Of a stretch of DNA of 8,915 nucleotides, positions 1 through 8,502 are shown in pieces (the stretch's first letter is position 1; each line of letters begins with the position of its first letter). The translations under genes and the position numbers were made by a program. Location of the stretch: the IMG/VR virus record IMGVR_UViG_2778261203_000002; one strand, 5' to 3'. The DNA comes from a virus (Duplodnaviria; Heunggongvirae; Uroviricota; Caudoviricetes). Below the pieces are notes generated by a model that did no database searches, was not told the DNA's origin, and saw nothing but the letters and a program-made list of their open reading frames with translations.

Positions 1-575
1 CCATTCGTGGGACAGTATCCCTGACAGCCTACAAAACGCAATTGAAGAACGCGAGGCATCGTCTTAACGAGGCACCGAGGCGTCGCATTCTTCAGATGGT
101 TCAACCCTTAAGTTAGCGCTTATGGGAGAAATCCCCGCAACCTCTGATGTATTATGCATCCTCAACGCAGCCACAGTTAACCTGATTGGCGGGTTTACTT
201 CATCTGTAAATATTTTTATAAAAATAATGCCCACGCACAGCATAAAACAAAAAGTATTACAGATAAAAAAGGAACGTAATGTACAGATTTGTTGTTTTCC
301 ATATTTACTCACCTTAATATGATTAACCCTGATAGGGCTGTTATTTCAGCGGTTTTCAAATGAGATATTATGGTGATCTGACAAATTTGCATAACATTAA
401 AATTTAATTTGTTTAACCGCTTTTAATAATAAGCGTTGTTTGTATCCCAGCAATCTGTTGTTTGGTTTTTATTCCATTAAGGTGGGGGCTTTACACTGGA
501 ACCAGTTTATTTATACTTTATACGTCAGCCTGAACAACTGGCATCTGCTGCACTGCGCCATCGAGAGATTGAGAA

Positions 576-1175
576 ATGGCGCATATACAACTGGTCAAAC
601 AAACTTCTTCTGGTTTACTTCTCCCGGCGACGCCGGAGAGTTGCGATTTTCTGCATCAAATCAAAATAGGTGAGTGGATACACGCAGACTTTAAGCGTGT
701 GCGTAACTACGCATTCCACAAGCGTTTTTTCAAACTCCTGCAACTGGGATTCGATTACTGGACTCCGGTCGGTGGGGCGATCACGCCTCGCGAACGAGAA
801 CTGCTGTCTGGTTTCGTTGATTACCTGTGCGAATCAGTTGGTCGGGAACACACGCCAGCCCTGAGTGATGCCGCAGAGCAATACCTTAACACCGTTGCGA
901 CTCGTAGAACCCGGGATACGGCGTTGCTAAAGTCGTTTGAGGCTTTCCGCGAGTGGGTAACCATTCAGGCCGGATTTTACACCGAGCATATTTATCCGGA
1001 CGGTAGCCGTGGGCGTCGGGCAAAATCCATCGCTTTTGCGAATATGGACGAAGTCGAGTTTCAGCAGGTTTATAAATCTGTACTGAATGTGCTGTGGAAC
1101 TGGATTCTGTTCCGTAAATTCTCCTCTCAGGAGGAAGTTGAAAATGTGGCCGCACAACTACTGGAGTTTGCGTAA
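576..1175 (+). CDS. Conserved lambdoid nin-region protein (DUF1367-like, YdaW-like by position)
   Basis: 199-aa ORF with ATG at 576 and a protein-like composition. Its TAA stop (1173-1175) overlaps the ATG of the next gene (TAATG), indicating translational coupling. It sits immediately upstream of a YbcO-like gene and a Q-like gene, as in nin regions of E. coli prophages. Family name is from memory of this gene neighbourhood, not from an alignment. Confidence 0.65.
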   Translation: MAHIQLVKQTSSGLLLPATPESCDFLHQIKIGEWIHADFKRVRNYAFHKRFFKLLQLGFDYWTPVGGAITPRERELLSGFVDYLCESVGREHTPALSDAAEQYLNTVATRRTRDTALLKSFEAFREWVTIQAGFYTEHIYPDGSRGRRAKSIAFANMDEVEFQQVYKSVLNVLWNWILFRKFSSQEEVENVAAQLLEFA

Positions 1176-1465
1176 TGGTGAATTTACGTAAAGCGGCTAA
1201 AGGCCAGATGTGCCAGATCAGAATCCCTGGCTACTGCAATCACAATCCCGAAACCTCTGTGCTGGCGCATTACAGGCTGGCGGGGACGTGCGGAACAGCG
1301 ACAAAACCACACGATATGCAGGCGGCGATAGCCTGTAGCTCATGCCACGATCTAATCGACGGGCGGGTAAAAACCAGCGATTACACCAAAGAAGAATTGC
1401 GCCTGATGCATGCTGAAGGGGTTTTTCGCACACAAGAAATCTGGAGAAAGAAAGGTCATTTATGA
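1175..1465 (+). CDS. YbcO-like nin-region protein (DUF1364, putative Cys/His metal-binding nuclease)
   Basis: 96-aa ORF whose translation (MVNLRKAAKGQMCQIRIPGYCNHNPETSVLAHYRLAGTCGTATKPHDMQAAIACSSCHDLIDGR...) closely matches my recollection of E. coli DLP12 YbcO, including the conserved Cys/His spacing. Start overlaps the upstream stop (TAATG); its stop overlaps the next start (ATGA at 1462-1465). Confidence 0.75.
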   Translation: MVNLRKAAKGQMCQIRIPGYCNHNPETSVLAHYRLAGTCGTATKPHDMQAAIACSSCHDLIDGRVKTSDYTKEELRLMHAEGVFRTQEIWRKKGHL

Positions 1466-2004
1466 TTTACCCAACGAATACAGGAAAAAGCGGAGAACAC
1501 CTTCGCCTCACCACGCTGGAAAGTGTCTGGATTCAGGGAAAACTACGTATGTGGGGGCGCTGGTCGTATATTGGCGGTGGCAGGTCAGGGAATATGTTCA
1601 ATCAGTTGTTGGCATCCAAAAAACTGACGAAAACAGCCATTAATGAAGCCCTGCGCAGAATGAAAAAAGCGGGAATAGAGAAAGCTGAGCTGGAAGCGTT
1701 TTTGCGAGAGATGATCAACGGCAAGCAAAAGAGCTGGCTGGCGCATTGTACTGATGCAGAGGCGTTATGTATTGATCGAGTCATAAGTGAGGTGCTGGCA
1801 GAGCATCCAGGATTGATTTGCATTCTCCGGCAACGCTATGAAGGGCGGGGGATGACTAAGCGCAAAATGGCTGAATTGCTAAATGATGCACACCCAGAGT
1901 GGTGTTTTAGCACATGCGAAAAACGGATTGCTAATTGGTTAGCTGTTGCTGAGTATGCCCTATATATTCCCATGCGTGAATCATTTGCTGAGAAAATGGC
2001 TTGA
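1462..2004 (+). CDS. Putative late-gene antiterminator (Q-like)
   Basis: 180-aa ORF, translationally coupled to the upstream gene, occupying the canonical Q position: last gene of the nin module, followed within about 80 bp by a strong intrinsic terminator and then the lysis cassette. It contains Cys pairs (C-x7-C, C-x3-C) compatible with a zinc-binding motif. The Q assignment is by position and general features only; I do not recognise it as lambda Q or phage 82 Q. Confidence 0.55.
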   Translation: MIYPTNTGKSGEHLRLTTLESVWIQGKLRMWGRWSYIGGGRSGNMFNQLLASKKLTKTAINEALRRMKKAGIEKAELEAFLREMINGKQKSWLAHCTDAEALCIDRVISEVLAEHPGLICILRQRYEGRGMTKRKMAELLNDAHPEWCFSTCEKRIANWLAVAEYALYIPMRESFAEKMA

Positions 2005-2084
2005 TTTCTTACGTATAAACTGCTTCAATTTTGCTATGCTTCGCAAAGCTGTATCGCGAGGCGGATTGCAGACATGGACATCGT

Positions 2085-2111
2085 AAAAAAACCGCTTAAT
2101 GCGGTTTTTTT
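2085..2111 (+). terminator. Rho-independent terminator (A-run, 5-bp GC stem ACCGC/GCGGT, loop TTAAT, T-run)
   Basis: Sequence AAAAAAACCGCTTAATGCGGTTTTTTT is seen directly. The stem is flanked by an A-tract upstream and a T-tract downstream, so it could terminate in either direction. It lies just downstream of the Q-like gene, making it a candidate for the Q transcript terminator or tR'. Confidence 0.7.
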
Positions 2112-2132
2112 ACGTCAGGAAAGCAGGGGAGA

Positions 2133-2270
2133 ATGCTGCTAGTTGGGCAACTGGTCTTTCTGCTCCAAATTATAACAGAGACCAGTTATAGTTTCGGTGC
2201 TGTGTTTTTTTTACAATATTGTGATAACACATTGCTGGCGGGAGTTTTGATATTTCTTGGCAGGGGCTGA
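2133..2270 (+). CDS. Hypothetical small hydrophobic protein (45 aa), unverified
   Basis: ATG at 2133 preceded by a purine-rich AGGGGAGA; it translates to MLLVGQLVFLLQIITETSYSFGAVFFLQYCDNTLLAGVLIFLGRG, which has one or two hydrophobic stretches. It lies between two intrinsic terminators. The SD-to-start spacing is short and there is no homology support. Confidence 0.25.
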   Translation: MLLVGQLVFLLQIITETSYSFGAVFFLQYCDNTLLAGVLIFLGRG

Positions 2271-2431
2271 TGATGCGTTATCCTGATGTCGTCAACTCAT
2301 ATAAAATGAGATGAGAGATCATTGCAGGGTGGTTTGTAATTCGCTGTTTAGCGGGACAATATGTTGTCTGATACAAGACACCCGACGCCTCAGATTACTA
2401 TAATAAAGACGAAGCATCCTTTGTATTGACC

Positions 2432-2457
2432 AACCGCCTGTTTAGGCGGTTCTTTTT
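2432..2457 (+). terminator. Rho-independent terminator (7-bp stem AACCGCC/GGCGGTT, loop TGTTTA, then CTTTTTG)
   Basis: Perfect 7-bp inverted repeat followed by a T-run, seen directly. It is the second terminator downstream of the Q-like gene and is an alternative candidate for tR'. Confidence 0.65.
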
Positions 2458-2989
2458 GGGCTGGTTTATTGTATGCCAAATGATTATTAAAAAGGTTGTG
2501 TTAATAACAAAATCCGAAATAATATGCCTGCATATTTTTATCTTGCTTATATTCTGCATATTGTGCATAGCAGGCTCATCCCTGCAATCAAAACTGTATG
2601 ATGAGTATTTTTTGTTTTCCTTTTTTCCAGTCATCTGATGATGACCTGCTTCTTTTTAATCCGGATCGACATCAGTTTTTTAAGATAATTCCTGCGAGTT
2701 ATATGCATAAATACCACAAACTCCGCATTTTATGTGGTTGGGAGTTGCCGGGCGCGCAGTGAGTTTGCTAAGAAAACTCCTGCATGGTGAATCCCCCTGT
2801 GCGGTGGGGTGATACCATTAACCTTTTCTGTCGCCGACAGGTATCACGAACATTTTGTTCACCGGGAGGCACCCGGCACCATGCACTTCAATAGATTCTC
2901 TCCACATTATGGATATTCTTTCAGAATATCCCACGCAGACTTTGTGTAAATGTTAACAAATGTGCGTTTTATTTGATCTGATTCGCTGT

Positions 2990-3019
2990 TTGAGCGTCCA
3001 AAACAACGGTATATATAAT
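2990..3019 (+). promoter_or_regulatory. Putative sigma70 promoter for the lipoprotein cassette (TTGAGC, 18-bp spacer, TATAAT)
   Basis: -35-like TTGAGC at 2990-2995 and a consensus -10 TATAAT at 3014-3019, about 30 bp upstream of the ATG at 3049, which is preceded by a GAGGA Shine-Dalgarno. Pattern match only. Confidence 0.45.
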
Positions 3020-3048
3020 CCTTTACTATATGACATATGTGAGGAAAA

Positions 3049-3477
3049 ATGGGTTTTCGTAGCGCATCAATTCTTACGTTGATTATTAGTGGGATTATTA
3101 TCGGGTGCACTGATGCTGTATCGACAAATTATCATGACCGTACATCATATTACTCCGATAAAGCAATAGAGACACAGTATGTGAGTTCATCTGAACGTAC
3201 TTCTGATGTTAGTGAGGATATCCGTCTGTATGCCCATCAAATCAAGAGCGCCATCGAAAAACAGTTCGGGGATGCGAGTAAGTATTCAGGAAAAGAGTGT
3301 ACACTGAGAATGCATATGGCCCCGAATGGCCTTCTACTGGAGGTTAAAAGAGAAAGTGGAGACCTCGATTTATGTCGTGAAGCGATGAATGCGATAAAGA
3401 ATGCTGATATACCTGCCCCCCCTTCGCCGGAAGTATATAAAGTATTTCAAAATGGGGTGCTGGATTTTAAACCCTGA
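3049..3477 (+). CDS. Lipoprotein with C-terminal TolA domain III-like domain
   Basis: 142-aa ORF with a GAGGA RBS. N-terminus MGFRSASILTLIISGIIIGC has a hydrophobic core and a lipobox (IIGC, Cys20 at nt 3106-3108); Thr at +2 predicts outer-membrane sorting. The C-terminal ~85 residues (YAHQIKSAIEKQFGDASKYSGKECTLRMHMAPNGLLLEVKRESGDLDLCREAMNAIKNADIPAPPSPEVYKVFQNGVLDFKP) align along their whole length with my recollection of the E. coli TolA C-terminal domain, including the two Cys residues and the terminal LDFKP. Identity was not computed. Confidence 0.85.
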   Translation: MGFRSASILTLIISGIIIGCTDAVSTNYHDRTSYYSDKAIETQYVSSSERTSDVSEDIRLYAHQIKSAIEKQFGDASKYSGKECTLRMHMAPNGLLLEVKRESGDLDLCREAMNAIKNADIPAPPSPEVYKVFQNGVLDFKP

Positions 3478-3627
3478 TATTTATTGTTTTGTAATAAACG
3501 GTTTCGGCTTAGGTTTGTTCTGACACAGCTACGGCACTGAGCTAAATTTAGCGGATAGTCAGCTCTGAGCCAGTGGCGGACGTAACAACTACTATTGCTG
3601 AGATTTTAATGGATTGAGGAGCAAGAA

Positions 3628-4023
3628 GTGGGATTAAAGAAAATCGTTATGTTGACTTTTTGGGTCGGTTTTGTTGCGGGATGCACACCTTTACACCCTT
3701 CAGATTGCCACAAAACTACTGCTACAGGTAGTTGCAGTTCAGGACGCTGGGATGATCAGGATGAATGGGGGGCGCAAGCGCGGGGAATCAGAGCTGCAAT
3801 TAATGCCAAACTTGATGAGCCGCATAACTGGAAAGGGAAAAAATGCAGGTTGCATATGGAATTCTCTCAGGATGGCACGGCGTTAAAAATATCTACCAGT
3901 AACGGTGATAAAGCCTATTGCGAAGCGATAAAGTCCGCAGCTCATAAAGCCAAATTTCCGGCCTTCAACAATCCGGAAGTCTACAGAGATTTTCAGAAAT
4001 CTGGCTTTGACATGCGAGGTTAG
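3628..4023 (+). CDS. Lipoprotein, divergent paralogue of the upstream TolA-III-like lipoprotein
   Basis: 131-aa ORF starting at GTG 3628, with GAGGAG 6 nt upstream. Signal peptide MGLKKIVMLTFWVGFVAGC has lipobox VAGC (Cys19, nt 3682-3684) and Thr at +2. The C-terminal region (GKKCRLHMEFSQDGTALKISTSNGDKAYCEAIKSAAHKAKFPAFNNPEVYRDFQ) shares the K-x-C-x-L, D/NG, GD-x-x-x-C and PEVY-x-x-FQ pattern with the upstream paralogue and with TolA domain III. Confidence 0.8.
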   Translation: MGLKKIVMLTFWVGFVAGCTPLHPSDCHKTTATGSCSSGRWDDQDEWGAQARGIRAAINAKLDEPHNWKGKKCRLHMEFSQDGTALKISTSNGDKAYCEAIKSAAHKAKFPAFNNPEVYRDFQKSGFDMRG

Positions 4024-4148
4024 CTCTTCAATTACTATATCTCATTCATAGCAAACTGACAGATTTGATGATGTTCTATATACGAAACCTGTGATGTCAA
4101 GTCTGAGCTAATACAAATAAACATAATATCAGAGAAATACATTTTATT

Positions 4149-4172
4149 AGCTCGCTACGGCGAGCTTTTTAT
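4149..4172 (+). terminator. Rho-independent terminator (7-bp stem AGCTCGC/GCGAGCT, loop TACG, T-run)
   Basis: Perfect inverted repeat followed by TTTTTAT, about 125 bp downstream of the second lipoprotein stop and about 100 bp upstream of the holin start. Confidence 0.7.
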
Positions 4173-4274
4173 ATTGCATCGTCTCCAGCATATATATCAA
4201 TTAAGGCTCTGATTGATGTGTCTGAAAGCCTACACATAATAACTATGCCATCCGTTCCGTGCGGAGGTGAGGCT

Positions 4275-4490
4275 ATGAAATCCATGGACAAAATTTCAAC
4301 AGGCATTGCCTACGGCACCTCCGCAGGCAGTGCTGGCTACTGGTTTTTACAGTTGCTCGATAGAGTAACTCCGTCACAGTGGGCTGCAATCGGTGTGCTG
4401 GGTAGTCTGGTATTTGGCCTGCTGACGTACCTGACAAACCTTTATTTCAAGATTAAAGAAGATAAGCGCAAGGCTGCGAGAGGTGAATAA
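4275..4490 (+). CDS. Phage 21-type class II holin/antiholin (pinholin S21 family), dual-start
   Basis: Translation [71 protein letters not shown] matches phage 21 S as I recall it, with the Met1-Lys2-Ser3-Met4 dual-start motif (antiholin from ATG 4275, holin from ATG 4284). A GGAGGTGA RBS lies at 4264-4271. The track ORF from 4218 is an upstream extension with no support. The TAA stop overlaps the endolysin ATG at 4490. Confidence 0.9.
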
Positions 4491-4987
4491 TGCCTCCATC
4501 ATTACGAAAAGTCGTTGCTGCTGCTATTGGTGGCGGAGCAATTGCTATAGCATCAGTGTTAATCACTGGCCCAAGTGGTAACGATGGTCTGGAAGGTGTC
4601 AGCTACATACCATACAAAGATATTGTTGGTGTATGGACTGTATGTCACGGGCATACAGGAAAAGACATCATGCTCGGTAAAACGTATACCAAAGCAGAAT
4701 GCAAAACACTCTTGAATAAAGACCTTGCCACGGTCGCCAGACAAATTAACCCGTACATCAAAGTCGATATACCGGAAACAACGCGCGGCGCTCTTTACTC
4801 ATTCGTTTACAACGTGGGTGCTGGCAATTTCAGAACATCGACGCTTCTTCGCAAAATAAACCAGGGCGATATCAAAGGCGCATGTGATCAGCTACGTCGC
4901 TGGACATATGCTGGCGGTAAGCAATGGAAAGGTCTCATGACTCGTCGTGAGATTGAGCGTGAAATCTGTTTGTGGGGTCAGCAATGA
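4490..4987 (+). CDS. SAR endolysin (phage 21 R-type lysozyme, glycoside hydrolase family 24)
   Basis: 165-aa ORF. The N-terminal Gly/Ala-rich weakly hydrophobic segment ([20 protein letters not shown]) is typical of a signal-anchor-release domain, followed by a T4-lysozyme-like catalytic region. Near-identical to R21 from memory. Its stop overlaps the Rz start (ATGA at 4984-4987). Confidence 0.92.
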
Positions 4988-5448
4988 ACAGAGTAACCGC
5001 GATTATCTCCGCTCTGGTTATCTGCATCATCGTCTGCCTGTCATGGGCTGTTAATCATTACCGTGATAACGCCATTACCTACAAAGCCCAGCGCGACAAA
5101 AATGCCAGAGAACTGAAGCTGGCGAACGCGGCAATTACTGACATGCAGATGCGTCAGCGTGATGTTGCTGCGCTCGATGCAAAATACACGAAGGAGTTAG
5201 CTGATGCGAAAGCTGAAAATGATGCTCTGCGTGATGATGTTGCCGCTGGTCGTCGTCGGTTGCACATCAAAGCAGTCTGTCAGTCAGTGCGTGAAGCCAC
5301 CACCGCCTCCGGCGTGGATAATGCAGCCTCCTCCCGACTGGCAGACACCGCTGAACGGGATTATTTCACCCTCCGGGAACGACTGGTAATGATGCAGGCC
5401 CAACTTGAAGGTGCTCAGCAATACATAACCGAGCAGTGTTTAAAGTAA
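4984..5448 (+). CDS. Rz inner-membrane spanin (i-spanin)
   Basis: Start taken at ATG 4984 ([55 protein letters not shown]...), which matches lambda-family Rz almost residue for residue from memory: an N-terminal transmembrane helix followed by coiled-coil periplasmic domains. The track ORF from 4972 is an in-frame upstream extension. Confidence 0.9.
5204..5389 (+). CDS. Rz1 outer-membrane lipoprotein spanin (o-spanin), embedded in the +1 frame of Rz
   Basis: 61-aa ORF wholly inside Rz in another frame. It has a lipobox (VVGC) and a proline-rich mature region ([15 protein letters not shown]), matching lambda Rz1 from memory. Confidence 0.85.
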
Positions 5449-5585
5449 AATCTTAACTACAATATGATTCATTTTGATGATTGTTTCATAAGGAACAGTG
5501 AAGTAAGATCTAAGAGGAGTTAAATTTTATACAGTATAATCATAGTATTGCAGCAAGGTGGTTATAATTGAAAGAATATTTAGAT

Positions 5586-7043
5586 ATGAATACATCTCAT
5601 GTAAGAGTTGTTACTCATATGTGTGGGTTCCTGGTTTGGCTCTATAGTCTTTCAATGTTGCCACCAATGGTTGTAGCATTGTTTTATAAAGAAAAAAGCC
5701 TGTTTGTTTTCTTTATAACTTTCGTTATATTTTTTTGCATTGGTGGCGGAGCGTGGTATACAACTAAGAAATCTGGCATTCAATTACGTACCCGTGATGG
5801 GTTTATTATAATTGTAATGTTTTGGATTTTGTTTTCTGTTATTAGTGCATTCCCTTTATGGATTGACTCAGAACTTAATTTAACGTTCATTGATGCTCTG
5901 TTTGAAGGGGTTTCTGGAATAACAACAACAGGAGCAACTGTAATTGATGATGTTAGTTCATTACCTCGGGCATATTTGTACTATCGGTCACAGTTAAATT
6001 TTATAGGTGGTTTAGGAGTTATTGTTCTGGCGGTTGCTGTATTGCCATTATTGGGTATTGGTGGTGCAAAGCTTTATCAGTCAGAAATGCCGGGGCCATT
6101 TAAGGATGACAAACTCACTCCCCGCCTGGCCGATACGTCACGGACACTGTGGATAACTTATTCTTTATTAGGTATTGCTTGTATTGTCTGTTATAGACTT
6201 GCAGGAATGCCTTTGTTTGATGCTATTTGTCACGGGATTTCCACAGTTTCGCTTGGTGGTTTCTCAACTCATAGCGAGAGTATCGGATATTTTAATAACT
6301 ATTTGGTTGAGCTGGTGGCTGGTTCTTTTTCCCTGCTATCGGCTTTCAACTTCACTCTTTGGTATATTGTTATTAGCAGGAAAACGATAAAACCTTTAAT
6401 CAGAGATATTGAACTTCGTTTCTTTCTGTTAATAGCCTTAGGGGTGATCATTGTTACCTCTTTCCAGGTCTGGCATATAGGTATGTATGACTTGCATGGA
6501 AGTTTTATTCATTCGTTTTTTCTTGCCAGCTCCATGCTCACTGATAATGGTTTAGCTACGCAGGATTATGCAAGTTGGCCCACGCACACGATAGTGTTTT
6601 TGCTGTTGTCAAGTTTCTTTGGGGGATGTATAGGTTCAACTTGTGGTGGAATTAAGTCACTTCGATTTCTTATACTTTTCAAACAAAGCAAACACGAGAT
6701 AAATCAGCTTTCTCATCCCAGAGCGTTGTTGAGTGTAAATGTAGGAGGGAAGATAGTTACAGATCGTGTAATGAGGTCTGTATGGAGTTTCTTTTTTCTT
6801 TATACTCTCTTCACGGTGTTTTTTATACTGGTGTTAAATGGTATGGGATATGATTTTCTTACATCATTTGCAACAGTGGCTGCATGTATTAATAATATGG
6901 GATTAGGTTTTGGGGCTACTGCATCGTCATTCGGAGTGCTTAATGACATTGCAAAATGTTTAATGTGCATAGCTATGATTCTTGGTCGCCTTGAAATTTA
7001 TCCTGTTATTATATTGTTTTCAGGTTTTTTTTGGCGCTCCTAA
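5586..7043 (+). CDS. trkG: TrkH/TrkG-family potassium uptake membrane protein (Trk system)
   Basis: Multi-pass hydrophobic protein of about 485 aa from ATG 5586 (MNTSHVRVVTHMCGF...), with repeated Gly-rich selectivity-filter-like segments (GITTTGATV, GIGGAK, SLGGFST, GLGFGA) typical of TrkH/KtrB. The sequence and its position directly after Rz/Rz1 match E. coli trkG of the Rac prophage as I recall it. An alternative TTG start at 5568 has AGGTGG 6 nt upstream. The gene is visibly more AT-rich than the flanking phage genes. Confidence 0.9.
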   Translation: MNTSHVRVVTHMCGFLVWLYSLSMLPPMVVALFYKEKSLFVFFITFVIFFCIGGGAWYTTKKSGIQLRTRDGFIIIVMFWILFSVISAFPLWIDSELNLTFIDALFEGVSGITTTGATVIDDVSSLPRAYLYYRSQLNFIGGLGVIVLAVAVLPLLGIGGAKLYQSEMPGPFKDDKLTPRLADTSRTLWITYSLLGIACIVCYRLAGMPLFDAICHGISTVSLGGFSTHSESIGYFNNYLVELVAGSFSLLSAFNFTLWYIVISRKTIKPLIRDIELRFFLLIALGVIIVTSFQVWHIGMYDLHGSFIHSFFLASSMLTDNGLATQDYASWPTHTIVFLLLSSFFGGCIGSTCGGIKSLRFLILFKQSKHEINQLSHPRALLSVNVGGKIVTDRVMRSVWSFFFLYTLFTVFFILVLNGMGYDFLTSFATVAACINNMGLGFGATASSFGVLNDIAKCLMCIAMILGRLEIYPVIILFSGFFWRS

Positions 7044-7129
7044 TATATGGCTGATTTATAATTGTGAGTTTAATATTATGTTGACTCACTCATTGATCCA
7101 ATACCTAACTTTACCAGCAACACCTCCGT

Positions 7130-7165
7130 CCCCAGTAGCACTGGCTGCTGGGGTGCGTTTTATTC
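7130..7165 (+). terminator. Possible stem-loop/terminator between trkG and the ParB-like gene (CCCCAG, 12-nt loop, CTGGGG, then TGCGTTTTATT)
   Basis: 6-bp GC-rich inverted repeat followed by a T-containing tract, seen directly. The loop is long and the T-run is interrupted, so this is weak. Confidence 0.3.
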
Positions 7166-7180
7166 ATAAAGCAAGGCTGT

Positions 7181-7774
7181 ATGAGCGAGAAATTAAAGAT
7201 AGTCTATCGCCCATTACAAGAATTGTCACCGTATGCGCACAACGCCAGGACGCACAGTACTGAGCAGGTGGCACAACTGGTAGAAAGTATTAAGCAATTC
7301 GGCTGGACTAATCCGGTGCTGATTGACGAAAAGGGCGAAATTATTGCGGGTCACGGTCGTGTTATGGCGGCTGAAATGCTCAAAATGGATTCTGTTCCGG
7401 TCATTGTTCTGTCTGGCCTGACGGATGAGCAGAAAAAGGCGTACCGCCTGGCAGATAATCGCCTGCCGATGAATGCTGGCTGGGATGAAGATCTGTTGCG
7501 GATGGAGCTGTCGGACCTAATCAATGCTGATTTTGATGTCTCCCTGACAGGCTTCATCCCGACAGAAATTGATGAACTGTTGACGGATGTTTTGCCCGGT
7601 ATGATATTCAGATTGCTGGTTATGGGGTTGGCGATAAAAATCAGCAACGCCAGCAGGAATTACTGCGGATTGAACGTGAATATAACAATCAGCGTCTGCA
7701 ACTTGAACGTGACTATGCAGATAAATCCCGTGGGATGTCAAATCATGTTTTTCAGGAGAAAATGCAGGCTCTGA
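7181..7774 (+). CDS. ynaK: ParB-like nuclease-domain protein, probably 3'-disrupted at a deletion junction
   Basis: ATG 7181 with AAGG 4 nt upstream. The N-terminal ~140 aa look like a ParB/sulfiredoxin-type domain, including the GHGRVMAA motif (conserved Gly-x-x-Arg). From about nt 7600 the same DNA also encodes, in another frame, a tape-measure-like coiled coil, so the last ~58 codons of this ORF (LPGMIFRLLVMGLAIKISNASRNY...) are probably not native. The gene symbol is assigned by synteny with trkG in Rac, not by sequence recognition. Confidence 0.6.
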   Translation: MSEKLKIVYRPLQELSPYAHNARTHSTEQVAQLVESIKQFGWTNPVLIDEKGEIIAGHGRVMAAEMLKMDSVPVIVLSGLTDEQKKAYRLADNRLPMNAGWDEDLLRMELSDLINADFDVSLTGFIPTEIDELLTDVLPGMIFRLLVMGLAIKISNASRNYCGLNVNITISVCNLNVTMQINPVGCQIMFFRRKCRL

Positions 7775-8502
7775 ATGATGCTCTGGAACGAGAAAAAGAA
7801 ATTGTCAGACAGAAAAACGAGCAGCTCGATATTCAGGCAGGAGACTGGGTTAGTGGTGCCTCCCAGGGATTCAATAACTGGCTGGATGACACTAAGGATA
7901 TCAGTGAGCAGATAAAATCAACCACGACTCAGATGTTTGATGGAATGACCGATGCGCTGGGTGATTTTGTCACGACAGGCAAGGCAAATTTTCGTTCTTT
8001 CGCTACTTCCGTGATTTCGGATCTTAGTCGAATAGCATTAAAGGCTTCAATTACTGGGATTTTCGACAGCATTAGTAACAGTTCTTCTGGGGGGATTTTA
8101 GGAACTATCGGGAGTGCTATTAGTAAATTTATTCCGAATGCAAAGGGCGGTGTTTATGAGTCTCCGTCATTGAACACGTATTCGAACGGTATTTATGATT
8201 CCCCGCATTTTTTTGCTTTTGCAAGAGGGGCTGGTGTTTTTGGTGAGGCTGGTCCGGAAGCCATTATGCCATTAACACGAACTTCCGATGGTTCTCTTGG
8301 TGTCAGAGCTATTAATAGTAAAAGTGGTAATGGAGGCGGAGATATTACCTATGCCCCTGTATACCAAATCACTATTCAAAATGACGGCCAGAATGGAGAG
8401 ATTGGCCCTCAGGCAATAAAAGCACTTATGGGGATGGTTGATCAGCGGGTGCAGGGCGATCTGTTAAATATGCGACGTGATGGGGGAATGTTAAGTGGCT
8501 AA
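7576..8502 (+). pseudogene. Tail tape-measure protein (lambda gpH-like) C-terminal fragment, 5'-truncated
   Basis: This frame is open from 7576 with no start codon until 7735 and begins mid coiled-coil (DIQIAGYGVGDKNQQRQQELLRIEREYNNQRLQLERDYADKSRG...). It continues with a Gly/Ser-rich C-terminal region and ends directly overlapping a gpM-like gene, reproducing the lambda H-M adjacency. The upstream two-thirds of a tape-measure gene are absent. Confidence 0.65.

Follow-up and report, generated by a model that had tools for sequence, protein, structure and literature searches.

The window analysed here is a stretch of 8,915 nucleotides of viral DNA (Duplodnaviria; Heunggongvirae; Uroviricota; Caudoviricetes), held as IMG/VR virus record IMGVR_UViG_2778261203_000002 and read along one strand, 5′ to 3′. 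Its gene content marks it as the part of a Rac-type lambdoid Escherichia coli prophage that serves late regulation and lysis. Two short genes, called here gene 1 and gene 2, stand between its Q-like antiterminator gene and its holin gene, and are best explained as a two-gene accessory cassette (a 'moron'). Their products, protein 1 and protein 2, are predicted lipoprotein precursors that end in a version of TolA's C-terminal domain (TolAIII, the TolA head). Gene 2, which an initial annotation had set apart as a diverged relative of gene 1, is the main subject of this analysis. Coordinates are collected in Table 1.

Lipoprotein precursors with a TolA head

Both precursors combine a positively charged n-region with a lipobox (pattern applied: [LVI][ASTVI][GAS]C closing a positive n-region and a hydrophobic core) and are of lipoprotein type, as the initial annotation had described them. 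The signal peptide of protein 1 is MGFRSASILTLIISGIIIG, followed by the lipobox Cys and then by Thr-Asp; in protein 2 the lipobox Cys19 is followed by Thr-Pro. Among 16 homologues of protein 2, Cys19 is invariant and Gly18 is conserved in at least 90%. Lipoproteins of E. coli that have no Asp at position +2 are sorted to the outer membrane. Neither protein carries Asp there, and both are predicted, once lipidated at the Cys, to be anchored in the inner leaflet of the outer membrane.

The remainder of each protein is largely a TolA head. The Pfam family PF06519 (TolA C-terminal domain; gathering cut-off 25 bits, model length 96 positions) is matched by protein 1 with 82.6 bits over model positions 4-96 and by protein 2 with 54.6 bits over positions 10-92. 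Solved TolAIII structures are the only sequence matches of either protein in the PDB, with an E-value of 5e-28 to 1s62 for protein 1 and of 5e-9 for protein 2 in a phmmer search. The core of the AlphaFold2 (AF2) model of protein 2 has a predicted local distance difference test (pLDDT) score of about 90, and Foldseek superposes this model on E. coli TolAIII (3qdp) with a TM-score of 0.92 and a root-mean-square deviation (rmsd) of 1.1 Å, and, with an rmsd of 1.4 Å, on TolAIII as it stands in 2x9a and 1tol, its complexes with g3p. The fold, of three helices and a three-stranded sheet, and the disulfide positions of protein 2 are those of E. coli TolAIII (1S62, 3QDP, 1TOL, 2X9A, 3QDR). By sequence score and by modelled fold, including the Cys pair, protein 2 is a member of PF06519.

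Neither protein is TolA itself. The full-length TolA model NF007065 (cut-off 213) is matched with 107.8 bits by protein 1 and 53.7 bits by protein 2; TIGR02794 (cut-off 59.45) gives 47.2 bits for protein 2 and 75.6 bits for protein 1, but the latter over model positions 265-362 only. Both proteins match just the final ~90 positions of the full-length TolA models. TolA is anchored in the inner membrane and possesses a transmembrane domain I and a helical domain II; proteins 1 and 2 have neither, hence no connection to TolQR or to the proton-motive force, and are predicted instead to hang from the outer membrane through a lipoprotein signal peptide and a short tether. Sequence comparison thus identifies them as stand-alone copies of the TolA head, predicted to be lipid-anchored. 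PGAP/RefSeq names gene 1 'tolA: cell envelope integrity protein TolA' (6150-6578 of the examined E. coli locus). Because domains I and II are absent, this name is an over-annotation and needs correction. Elsewhere in RefSeq the proteins belong to 'cell envelope integrity TolA C-terminal domain-containing protein' or 'tolA family protein', names based on the domain only, and PHROG 5772, the family matched by both proteins, is entered as 'unknown function'.

The reality of gene 2 and its initiation at GTG 3628 are well supported by the sequence and its relatives. As the initial annotation had it, the GTG stands behind a good ribosome-binding site, GAGGAG placed 6 nt ahead. The codon is GTG in all 80 IMG/VR contigs that carry the gene, and plasmid homologues have ATG exactly at this position with the same GAGGAG ahead. 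An in-frame TAA at 3607-3609 excludes an earlier start in the window. RAST also starts the gene at the GTG, and the list of open reading frames (ORFs) holds none of at least 40 aa on the minus strand beneath it. The GTG had been called unusual, yet GTG codons are a sizeable minority of E. coli starts, so its use here is not very unusual.

PGAP begins gene 2 at Met8 on chromosomes (375 nt; 6750-7124 of the examined E. coli locus) and 12 codons too early on plasmids (432 nt; 5995-6426 in two plasmid loci). The Met8 start was rejected on three grounds: residues K5, I6 and V7 are 90-100% conserved across genera, plasmid copies have their ATG at the GTG position, and the signal peptide would shrink to 11 residues with zero positive charge. 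In the pO157-like copy the Met8 codon is ATA. The upstream start is ruled out in the window by the TAA at 3607-3609 and would turn the Shine-Dalgarno sequence into coding sequence. The annotated starts of gene 2 in RefSeq need correction.

Codon substitutions indicate that gene 2 evolves under purifying selection. Compared with the plasmid copies, dS is ~0.5 and dN/dS ~0.11, with regional dN/dS values of 0.17-0.21 in the signal peptide, 0.10 in the Cys motif and 0.08-0.09 in the core. The ORF is 100% identical across hundreds of E. coli genomes and intact in 1263 of the 1269 with a match, and absence or decay in relatives, which would have spoken against the initial annotation, is not what is seen. 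These data bear on the suggestion that the genes are non-functional, decaying tolA fragments produced by illegitimate recombination. The shortness of the proteins, the plain label 'tolA' that PGAP gives gene 1 and the disagreement of annotation pipelines on the gene 2 start are in keeping with such an origin. The suggestion is essentially refuted by the selection and conservation data, however: besides the dN/dS of 0.11 at a dS of 0.5 and the intact ORF, the Shine-Dalgarno sequence and start are conserved, and a lipoprotein signal peptide was gained and kept in both lineages and in most short relatives.

Two lineages and their ligand surfaces

Proteins 1 and 2 are clearly homologous, as had been proposed: BLASTP aligns them with 63 bits and 29% identity over 141 columns (E 2e-18), and the core motifs are kept (KECTL, GDLDLC and PEVYKVFQ in protein 1; KKCRL, GDKAYC and PEVYRDFQ in protein 2). 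A local duplication followed by divergence, the origin suggested for the pair, is contradicted by their wider relationships. Protein 1 shares 59% of its residues with E. coli TolA 334-421 over the 88-residue core but 28% with protein 2, which in turn shares 31% with TolA; local pairwise alignment with TolA gives 60% for protein 1 and 34% for protein 2. In a neighbour-joining tree, protein 1 falls near genuine enterobacterial TolA and protein 2 in a distant clade, and each is also found alone. DNA similarity to copies of gene 1 elsewhere spans window positions 3103-3477, and similarity to copies of gene 2 stops at the ORF and its ribosome-binding site (~3591-4026). Because of the separate clades, the stand-alone copies and the ending of homology at ORF borders, the gene pair is read as separate lineages brought together in a single cassette. 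When 1.84 billion representative proteins were searched exhaustively, 130 relatives came up, many of them 110-165 aa long; of the 64 relatives in this size range, 47 have a lipobox. Judging from these matches, TolAIII lipoproteins form a broad class.

The hallmark of protein 2 lies between the lipobox and the head. The linker CHKTTATGSCSS and the DDQDEWG patch are present as first described, and the protein ends in DMRG in place of the LDFKP of protein 1. The linker had been taken for a diverged, variable spacer, and here the opposite was found. The pattern C19-x-PLHPS-x-C27-HKTTA-x-G-x-C36-x-SGRWDDQDEWG is almost invariant in the 16 homologues, which come from several genera (E. coli to Serratia), and the C-x8-C pair just past the lipid-bearing Cys is retained in relatives of only 33-60% identity. 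It is protein 1 that has a variable signal peptide and S/T/Y-rich linker, in a family found in E. coli only. The WDDQDEW of protein 2 continues into helix 1 of the TolAIII domain, and AF2 models residues 24-44 as a low-confidence hairpin (pLDDT about 55). On this conservation, the C-x8-C segment is a defining feature of the protein 2 lineage, and Cys27 and Cys36 probably form a disulfide loop. The segment SSGRWDDQDEWG was also considered as a colicin TolB box (DGSGWSSE...) and was rejected, the key Asp and Ser positions being misaligned by eye.

The heads differ at the surfaces that bind ligands in TolA. Residues are numbered here as in E. coli TolA; the 88-residue TolA sequence reproduces the residue numbers of the cited papers. 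The colicin A site on TolAIII comprises K368, L375-P380, L392 and K396 (PMC3365938). Its equivalents are H, LLEVKR, M and K in protein 1 and E, ALKIST, K and H in protein 2, which has lost all three lysines that make cation-π contacts with colicin A. The β3 strand of TolA binds g3p-N1, colicin N (ColN) and the TolB N-terminus, and either D418P or K420P abolishes binding (PMC4339652; PMC7391070). At the positions of D418 and K420, protein 1 has D and K, and protein 2 has D and R. The terminal LDFKP strand of protein 1 is that of TolA; the corresponding FDMRG of protein 2 keeps the Asp and a basic residue. Within the protein 2 family, the C-terminal helix and β3 (FPAFNNPEVYRDFQKSGFDM) are invariant and the β1-β2 face varies. 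TolAIII binds ColN-T and g3p-N1 at about 1-12 µM and TolB at about 40 µM (PMC4339652), and the g3p of filamentous phage IF1 docks on it in a solved complex (2x9a).

From these substitutions, protein 1 appears to be a general E. coli TolAIII mimic that keeps most of the colicin A site. Protein 2, which differs from TolAIII by its 31-34% identity, its missing colicin A lysines and its additional conserved C-x8-C motif, looks like a specialised head working through the β3 face, with a range of ligands that is different or narrower. The two proteins probably cover different ligands. The idea that each copy serves different colicins or phages, already put forward in the initial annotation, fits these findings, although the TolA domain behind it had gone unrecognised.

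Genomic contexts and expression signals

A 1301-bp stretch with both genes is present at a coverage of at least 80% in 773 of 5426 complete E. coli genomes (14%), commensal and pathogenic strains of many hosts among them, and is 100% identical in many chromosomes. Counting chromosomes and plasmids together, about one in four complete E. coli genomes has a gene 2 homologue. A DNA and protein search of 50,697 deposited phage genomes found the genes in the temperate phage mEp460_ev081 only, where the 1301-bp stretch is 99.9% identical. The gap between gene 1 and gene 2 downstream of it measures 151 nt in 79 of 80 viral contigs. In one IMG/VR contig it is 1350 nt, which suggests an insertion between the genes. 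The STnc100 element occurs in 72 of the 80 contigs, and flanks matching those of the window were found for Q in 44 of 72, for lysozyme in 41 of 70 and for trkG in 26 of 62. The block from the STnc100-like element to the holin region (2761-4400) is common to the window and mEp460_ev081 at 97% identity and includes the terminator-like hairpin after gene 2. The same block stands beside different Q and lysis modules; the cassette moves between lambdoid backbones as a unit.

The Rac prophage of K-12 MG1655 (NC_000913.3 1417000-1429000) aligns with the window only over 5004-7434, at 99.6%, in the order ydaW, rzpR pseudogene, rzoR, trkG. Relative to window positions 1-5003, it is missing everything from YbcO to the lysozyme, including the Q-like gene, the two TolAIII lipoprotein genes and the holin. 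The lack of a K-12 gene name or study may be due to this absence. Stx-like prophages carry a lone variant of gene 1 with ~80% nucleotide identity over the mature part and a different signal peptide (3947-4375 in two loci). It occupies the stx position, normally that of stxAB, in the order Q, methylase, tRNA-Ile, tRNA-Arg, the gene itself, then nanS-p; the window, unlike these prophages, has no tRNA genes. The late region of Stx-like prophages also holds five or more partial STnc100 copies (at 4495, 6480, 6726, 6996 and 7253 in one locus).

The protein 2 family (78-89% identity) extends to Citrobacter, Enterobacter, Klebsiella, Raoultella and Serratia. In Serratia the homologue adjoins GmrSD_N and HEPN genes, which are of defence type. 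About 600 plasmids of E. coli and Shigella carry a gene 2 copy of ~87% nucleotide identity. On the non-mobilisable pO157-type plasmids it comes after psiB, psiA and hok; on MPF_I conjugative plasmids (IncK2/Z, one also IncFIB) it sits between the relaxase gene and trbC; and one IncFIA/IncFIB plasmid with MPF_I has it upstream of trbC, bordered by IS3 elements on its other flank. More distant TolAIII genes were found on about 690 plasmids, 644 of them from Klebsiella. On small Klebsiella ColRNAI plasmids (NZ_CP065951.1 7818-8551, minus strand; NZ_MW598236.1 5622-6355), the gene for a 123-aa TolAIII lipoprotein (lipobox LLTAC) overlaps by 4 nt, in an apparent operon, the gene for a 121-aa protein that has a TonB C-terminal domain and a signal peptide that looks cleavable. 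The same plasmids encode a cloacin/colicin-E3-type bacteriocin with immunity and lysis genes (NZ_MW598236.1 9111-11297).

Two further neighbourhoods include Dsb-type genes. On the IncFII/IncR Klebsiella plasmid NZ_CP091060.1 (4217-5246), a TolAIII lipoprotein gene (lipobox LLITAC) comes immediately after the gene of an exported protein with a thioredoxin fold (Dsb-like, CVYC), and on I-complex plasmids a DsbC-family gene is also near the gene 2 homologue. The Dsb-like neighbours may be linked to disulfide formation in the TolA head.

The genes can also be considered as envelope-fitness factors. Bor/Iss and other lambdoid accessory lipoproteins act on envelope traits of the host. Anchored heads could likewise hold TolB or another TolA partner (CpoB/YbgF, porins) and raise robustness to bile, detergent or serum, a lysogenic conversion unrelated to colicins and phages; carriage by commensal and pathogenic E. 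coli of many hosts and the Enterobacter chromosomal copy among ordinary genes would suit such a role. It is nevertheless improbable. TolA function requires TolQR coupling through domain I, which is absent here (PMC7391070), free TolAIII is reported to weaken the envelope (as cited in PMC6195910), and the association with bacteriocin plasmids and a conjugation module would be left unexplained.

Table 1. Genes, protein segments and candidate signals of the window, in order of position.
Feature	Position	Strand	Remarks
DUF1367 protein	576-1175		
YbcO nuclease	1175-1465		
DUF1133/Q-like antiterminator	1462-2004		
Hairpin with A and T runs	2038-2111	+	Directly after Q-like gene; terminator about 2088-2111; weak isrK-like match, 21.6 bits, below gathering score
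Probable late promoter AAGACA-18-TATAAT	2375-2404	+	Strong short-transcript terminator ~30 nt on, at 2432-2451
Structured RNA element, Rfam STnc100	2752-2938	+	86.6 bits (gathering score 47); left end of mobile block
Sigma-70 promoter-like site TTGAGC-18-TATAAT	2990-3019	+	Just before gene 1; consensus scan, 10/12 matches; pattern match only
Gene 1	3049-3477	+	142-aa lipoprotein precursor; lipobox I-I-G-C, Cys20; variable S/T/Y-rich linker; TolAIII domain; ends LDFKP
Shine-Dalgarno GAGGAG	3616-3621	+	6 nt before GTG; read from sequence; kept in plasmid copies
Gene 2	3628-4023	+	131-aa lipoprotein precursor with TolA C-terminal domain; GTG start, TAG stop; from ORF list and sequence
Signal peptide MGLKKIVMLTFWVGFVAG and lipobox Cys19	3628-3684	+	Cys19 codon 3682-3684; lipobox V-A-G-C; two n-region Lys, no acidic residue
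N-terminal motif TPLHPSDCHKTTATGSCSSGRWDDQDEWG, residues 20-48	3685-3771	+	Cys27 (3706-3708) and Cys36 (3733-3735) form C-x8-C; acidic/aromatic patch into helix 1
TolAIII fold, residues 49-131	3772-4020	+	Cys73 (3844-3846) and Cys98 (3919-3921) align with TolA C363-C388; C-terminal strand GFDMRG
Intrinsic-terminator-like hairpin AGCTCGC-TACG-GCGAGCT with T run	4149-4176	+	Hairpin 4149-4166; between gene 2 and holin; terminator scan, pattern match only
P21-type holin	ends 4490		
Lysozyme	4490-4987		
Rz	4972-5448		With embedded Rz1-like lipoprotein ORF
trkG	5568-7043		
ParB-like ORF	within 7181-8502		263 aa in strain SE11, 197 aa here and continuing into tape-measure-like ORF 7735-8502

The signals around the cassette suggest two modes of expression. 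The promoter-like site at 2990-3019 is a possible promoter for expression in the lysogen, and in the elements at 2375-2451 this phage type may have its Q-antiterminated pR'/tR' pair. Such a layout suggests an accessory gene readable both from its own lysogen promoter and by Q-modified polymerase late in infection. This prophage appears to have a deletion between the ParB-like gene and the tail genes and is probably defective, although its lysis cassette looks intact.

The late position raises an alternative in which proteins 1 and 2 are dominant-negative inhibitors of Tol-Pal. TolA heads made in bulk from the Q-dependent late transcript would titrate TolB, loosen the outer membrane and favour leakage or vesiculation, which would assist the holin-endolysin-spanin genes directly downstream in freeing the progeny; on plasmids, they could ease passage of the pilus or DNA. 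The cassette does lie between the Q-like gene, with its probable pR'/tR' at 2375-2451, and the holin, lysozyme and Rz/Rz1 genes, and the plasmid copy of gene 2 can stand inside a transfer region. Periplasmic TolAIII is used in biotechnology to release periplasmic proteins from E. coli (PMC6195910), TolA β3 mutants without TolB binding are leaky (PMC4339652), and β3 of protein 1 is identical to that of TolA. Even so, this alternative, the main rival of the reading preferred below, is less likely. The phage already has a complete spanin pair, and no lysis genes lie near the lone homologues carried by Enterobacter and Serratia chromosomes or by the non-mobilisable pO157-like plasmids. The promoter-like site before the cassette and the terminator-like hairpin after it suggest lysis-independent expression, the binding of TolB to TolAIII is weak (about 40 µM; PMC4339652), and a lysis role does not readily account for the exported TonB head encoded alongside on bacteriocin plasmids.

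A decoy reading and what it would mean

The interpretation preferred here is that proteins 1 and 2 are outer-membrane TolA decoys that give tolerance to Tol-dependent colicins and filamentous phages. We infer the binding, localisation and phenotype it involves, and assign it a rough probability of 0.55. TolB, the translocation domains that group A colicins carry, and the N1 domain of g3p all dock on the TolA head (PMC3365938, PMC7391070, PMC4339652). With the lipobox Cys lipidated and no Asp at +2, the mature proteins would reside at the inner leaflet of the outer membrane and display a stand-alone TolAIII head in the periplasm. Lacking TolA domains I and II, these heads could not couple to TolQR or transduce energy. 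Placed under the outer membrane, they would catch colicin translocation domains or g3p ahead of energised TolA and hold the captured invader unproductively, leaving the lysogen tolerant to Tol-dependent bacteriocins and filamentous phages. Protein 1 would serve as the close mimic of E. coli TolAIII, and protein 2 would represent an older inter-genus lineage with its C-x8-C and acidic/aromatic motif. Because the affinities favour the invaders over TolB, moderate expression could protect the host without wrecking Tol-Pal.

The most telling support for the decoy role comes from the exported TolA and TonB heads that lie side by side on Klebsiella bacteriocin plasmids. Other mobile or competitive contexts (prophage accessory sites, the conjugation module, the defence-type neighbours in Serratia) point in the same direction. 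Exported TolAIII reportedly made cells colicin-tolerant in the work of Levengood-Freyermuth et al. of 1993. Engineered periplasmic TolAIII, likewise a free exported TolA head, disturbs Tol-dependent functions, perturbs the envelope and makes cells leaky (Wan and Baneyx 1998; Levengood-Freyermuth 1993; as cited in PMC6195910). That construct is soluble and over-expressed in the laboratory; the window genes are natural, predicted to be lipid-anchored, diverged, and borne by phages and plasmids.

Two known systems, neither related by sequence or fold, are the nearest functional analogues of the proposed mechanism. Cor of phi80, N15 and mEp phages and Llp of T5 are small outer-membrane lipoproteins that act on FhuA and protect the host from incoming phages and colicins. 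Like the putative decoys, they are lipoproteins of phage accessory genes, and they interfere with an entry protein, but they have no sequence or fold relation to proteins 1 and 2, and they bind and inactivate a receptor; proteins 1 and 2 imitate a periplasmic hub and would bind the invader. In the second system, g3p of a filamentous phage occupies TolA in the periplasm, which brings phage resistance and colicin tolerance. This exclusion uses the same TolAIII-g3p interaction (PMC7391070) with the logic reversed: in that case the ligand blocks the hub, and in this one a hub copy would mop up the ligand.

Several points weigh against a decoy role. Protein 2 is without the colicin A contacts and its β3 is altered. 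A TolAIII decoy should bind TolB too and could harm the envelope of its host. The cassette is part of the late operon, immediately upstream of the lysis genes, and may therefore be expressed most strongly in lytic growth, which suits a role in lysis or leakiness as well as it suits a decoy, and the promoter before gene 1 is a consensus match only. In Enterobacter, the gene 2 homologue is a lone gene amid ordinary chromosomal genes. Neither protein has a match at E <= 0.1 in PADLOC-DB v2, and the matching PHROG family is listed without a known function. The open-access literature yielded no functional study of these genes, though an older one is possible, and a paper on I-complex plasmid genetics (PMC10286972) makes no mention of the gene and is uninformative on a role in transfer.

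The gene is likewise not mentioned in the pCT paper (PMC3377399), and the BFVD viral structure library gave no significant match (best E 0.15). EDL933_2012 of CP-933O, described as TolA-type with a 32-fold ciprofloxacin induction (PMC11125564), was considered as expression evidence and set aside, no TolA-domain gene being found in EDL933 at 1.860-1.909 Mb.

The decoy reading can be extended, tentatively, to a widespread class of 'import-hub decoys' carried by mobile elements of Enterobacteriaceae. Exported TolA heads, and TonB heads on the Klebsiella bacteriocin plasmids, might soak up bacteriocins and g3p; the prophage cassette would then supply two heads of different specificity, and the relaxase-adjacent copy of I-complex conjugative plasmids might specifically shield pilus-bearing hosts from filamentous phages, such as IF1, that depend on the pilus and on TolA.

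The natural TolA head described here, predicted to be lipid-anchored, is borne by mobile elements, is common and by its substitution pattern is under selection, and the open-access literature was found to hold no functional work on it. Roughly one in seven complete E. coli genomes has the cassette, and K-12 has lost it. If the leakiness reading were true, the genes would represent a novel accessory step of phage lysis or vesicle formation. If the decoy reading is true, prophages and plasmids would provide a simple, portable tolerance of their hosts to Tol-dependent colicins and filamentous phages. This would bear on colicin-mediated competition in the gut, on bacteriocin and phage therapeutics and phage display in wild strains, and on the fitness of epidemic I-complex and pO157-type plasmids. 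The family would also offer TolAIII variants from nature whose binding surfaces are altered, of use in dissecting partner recognition by TolA.

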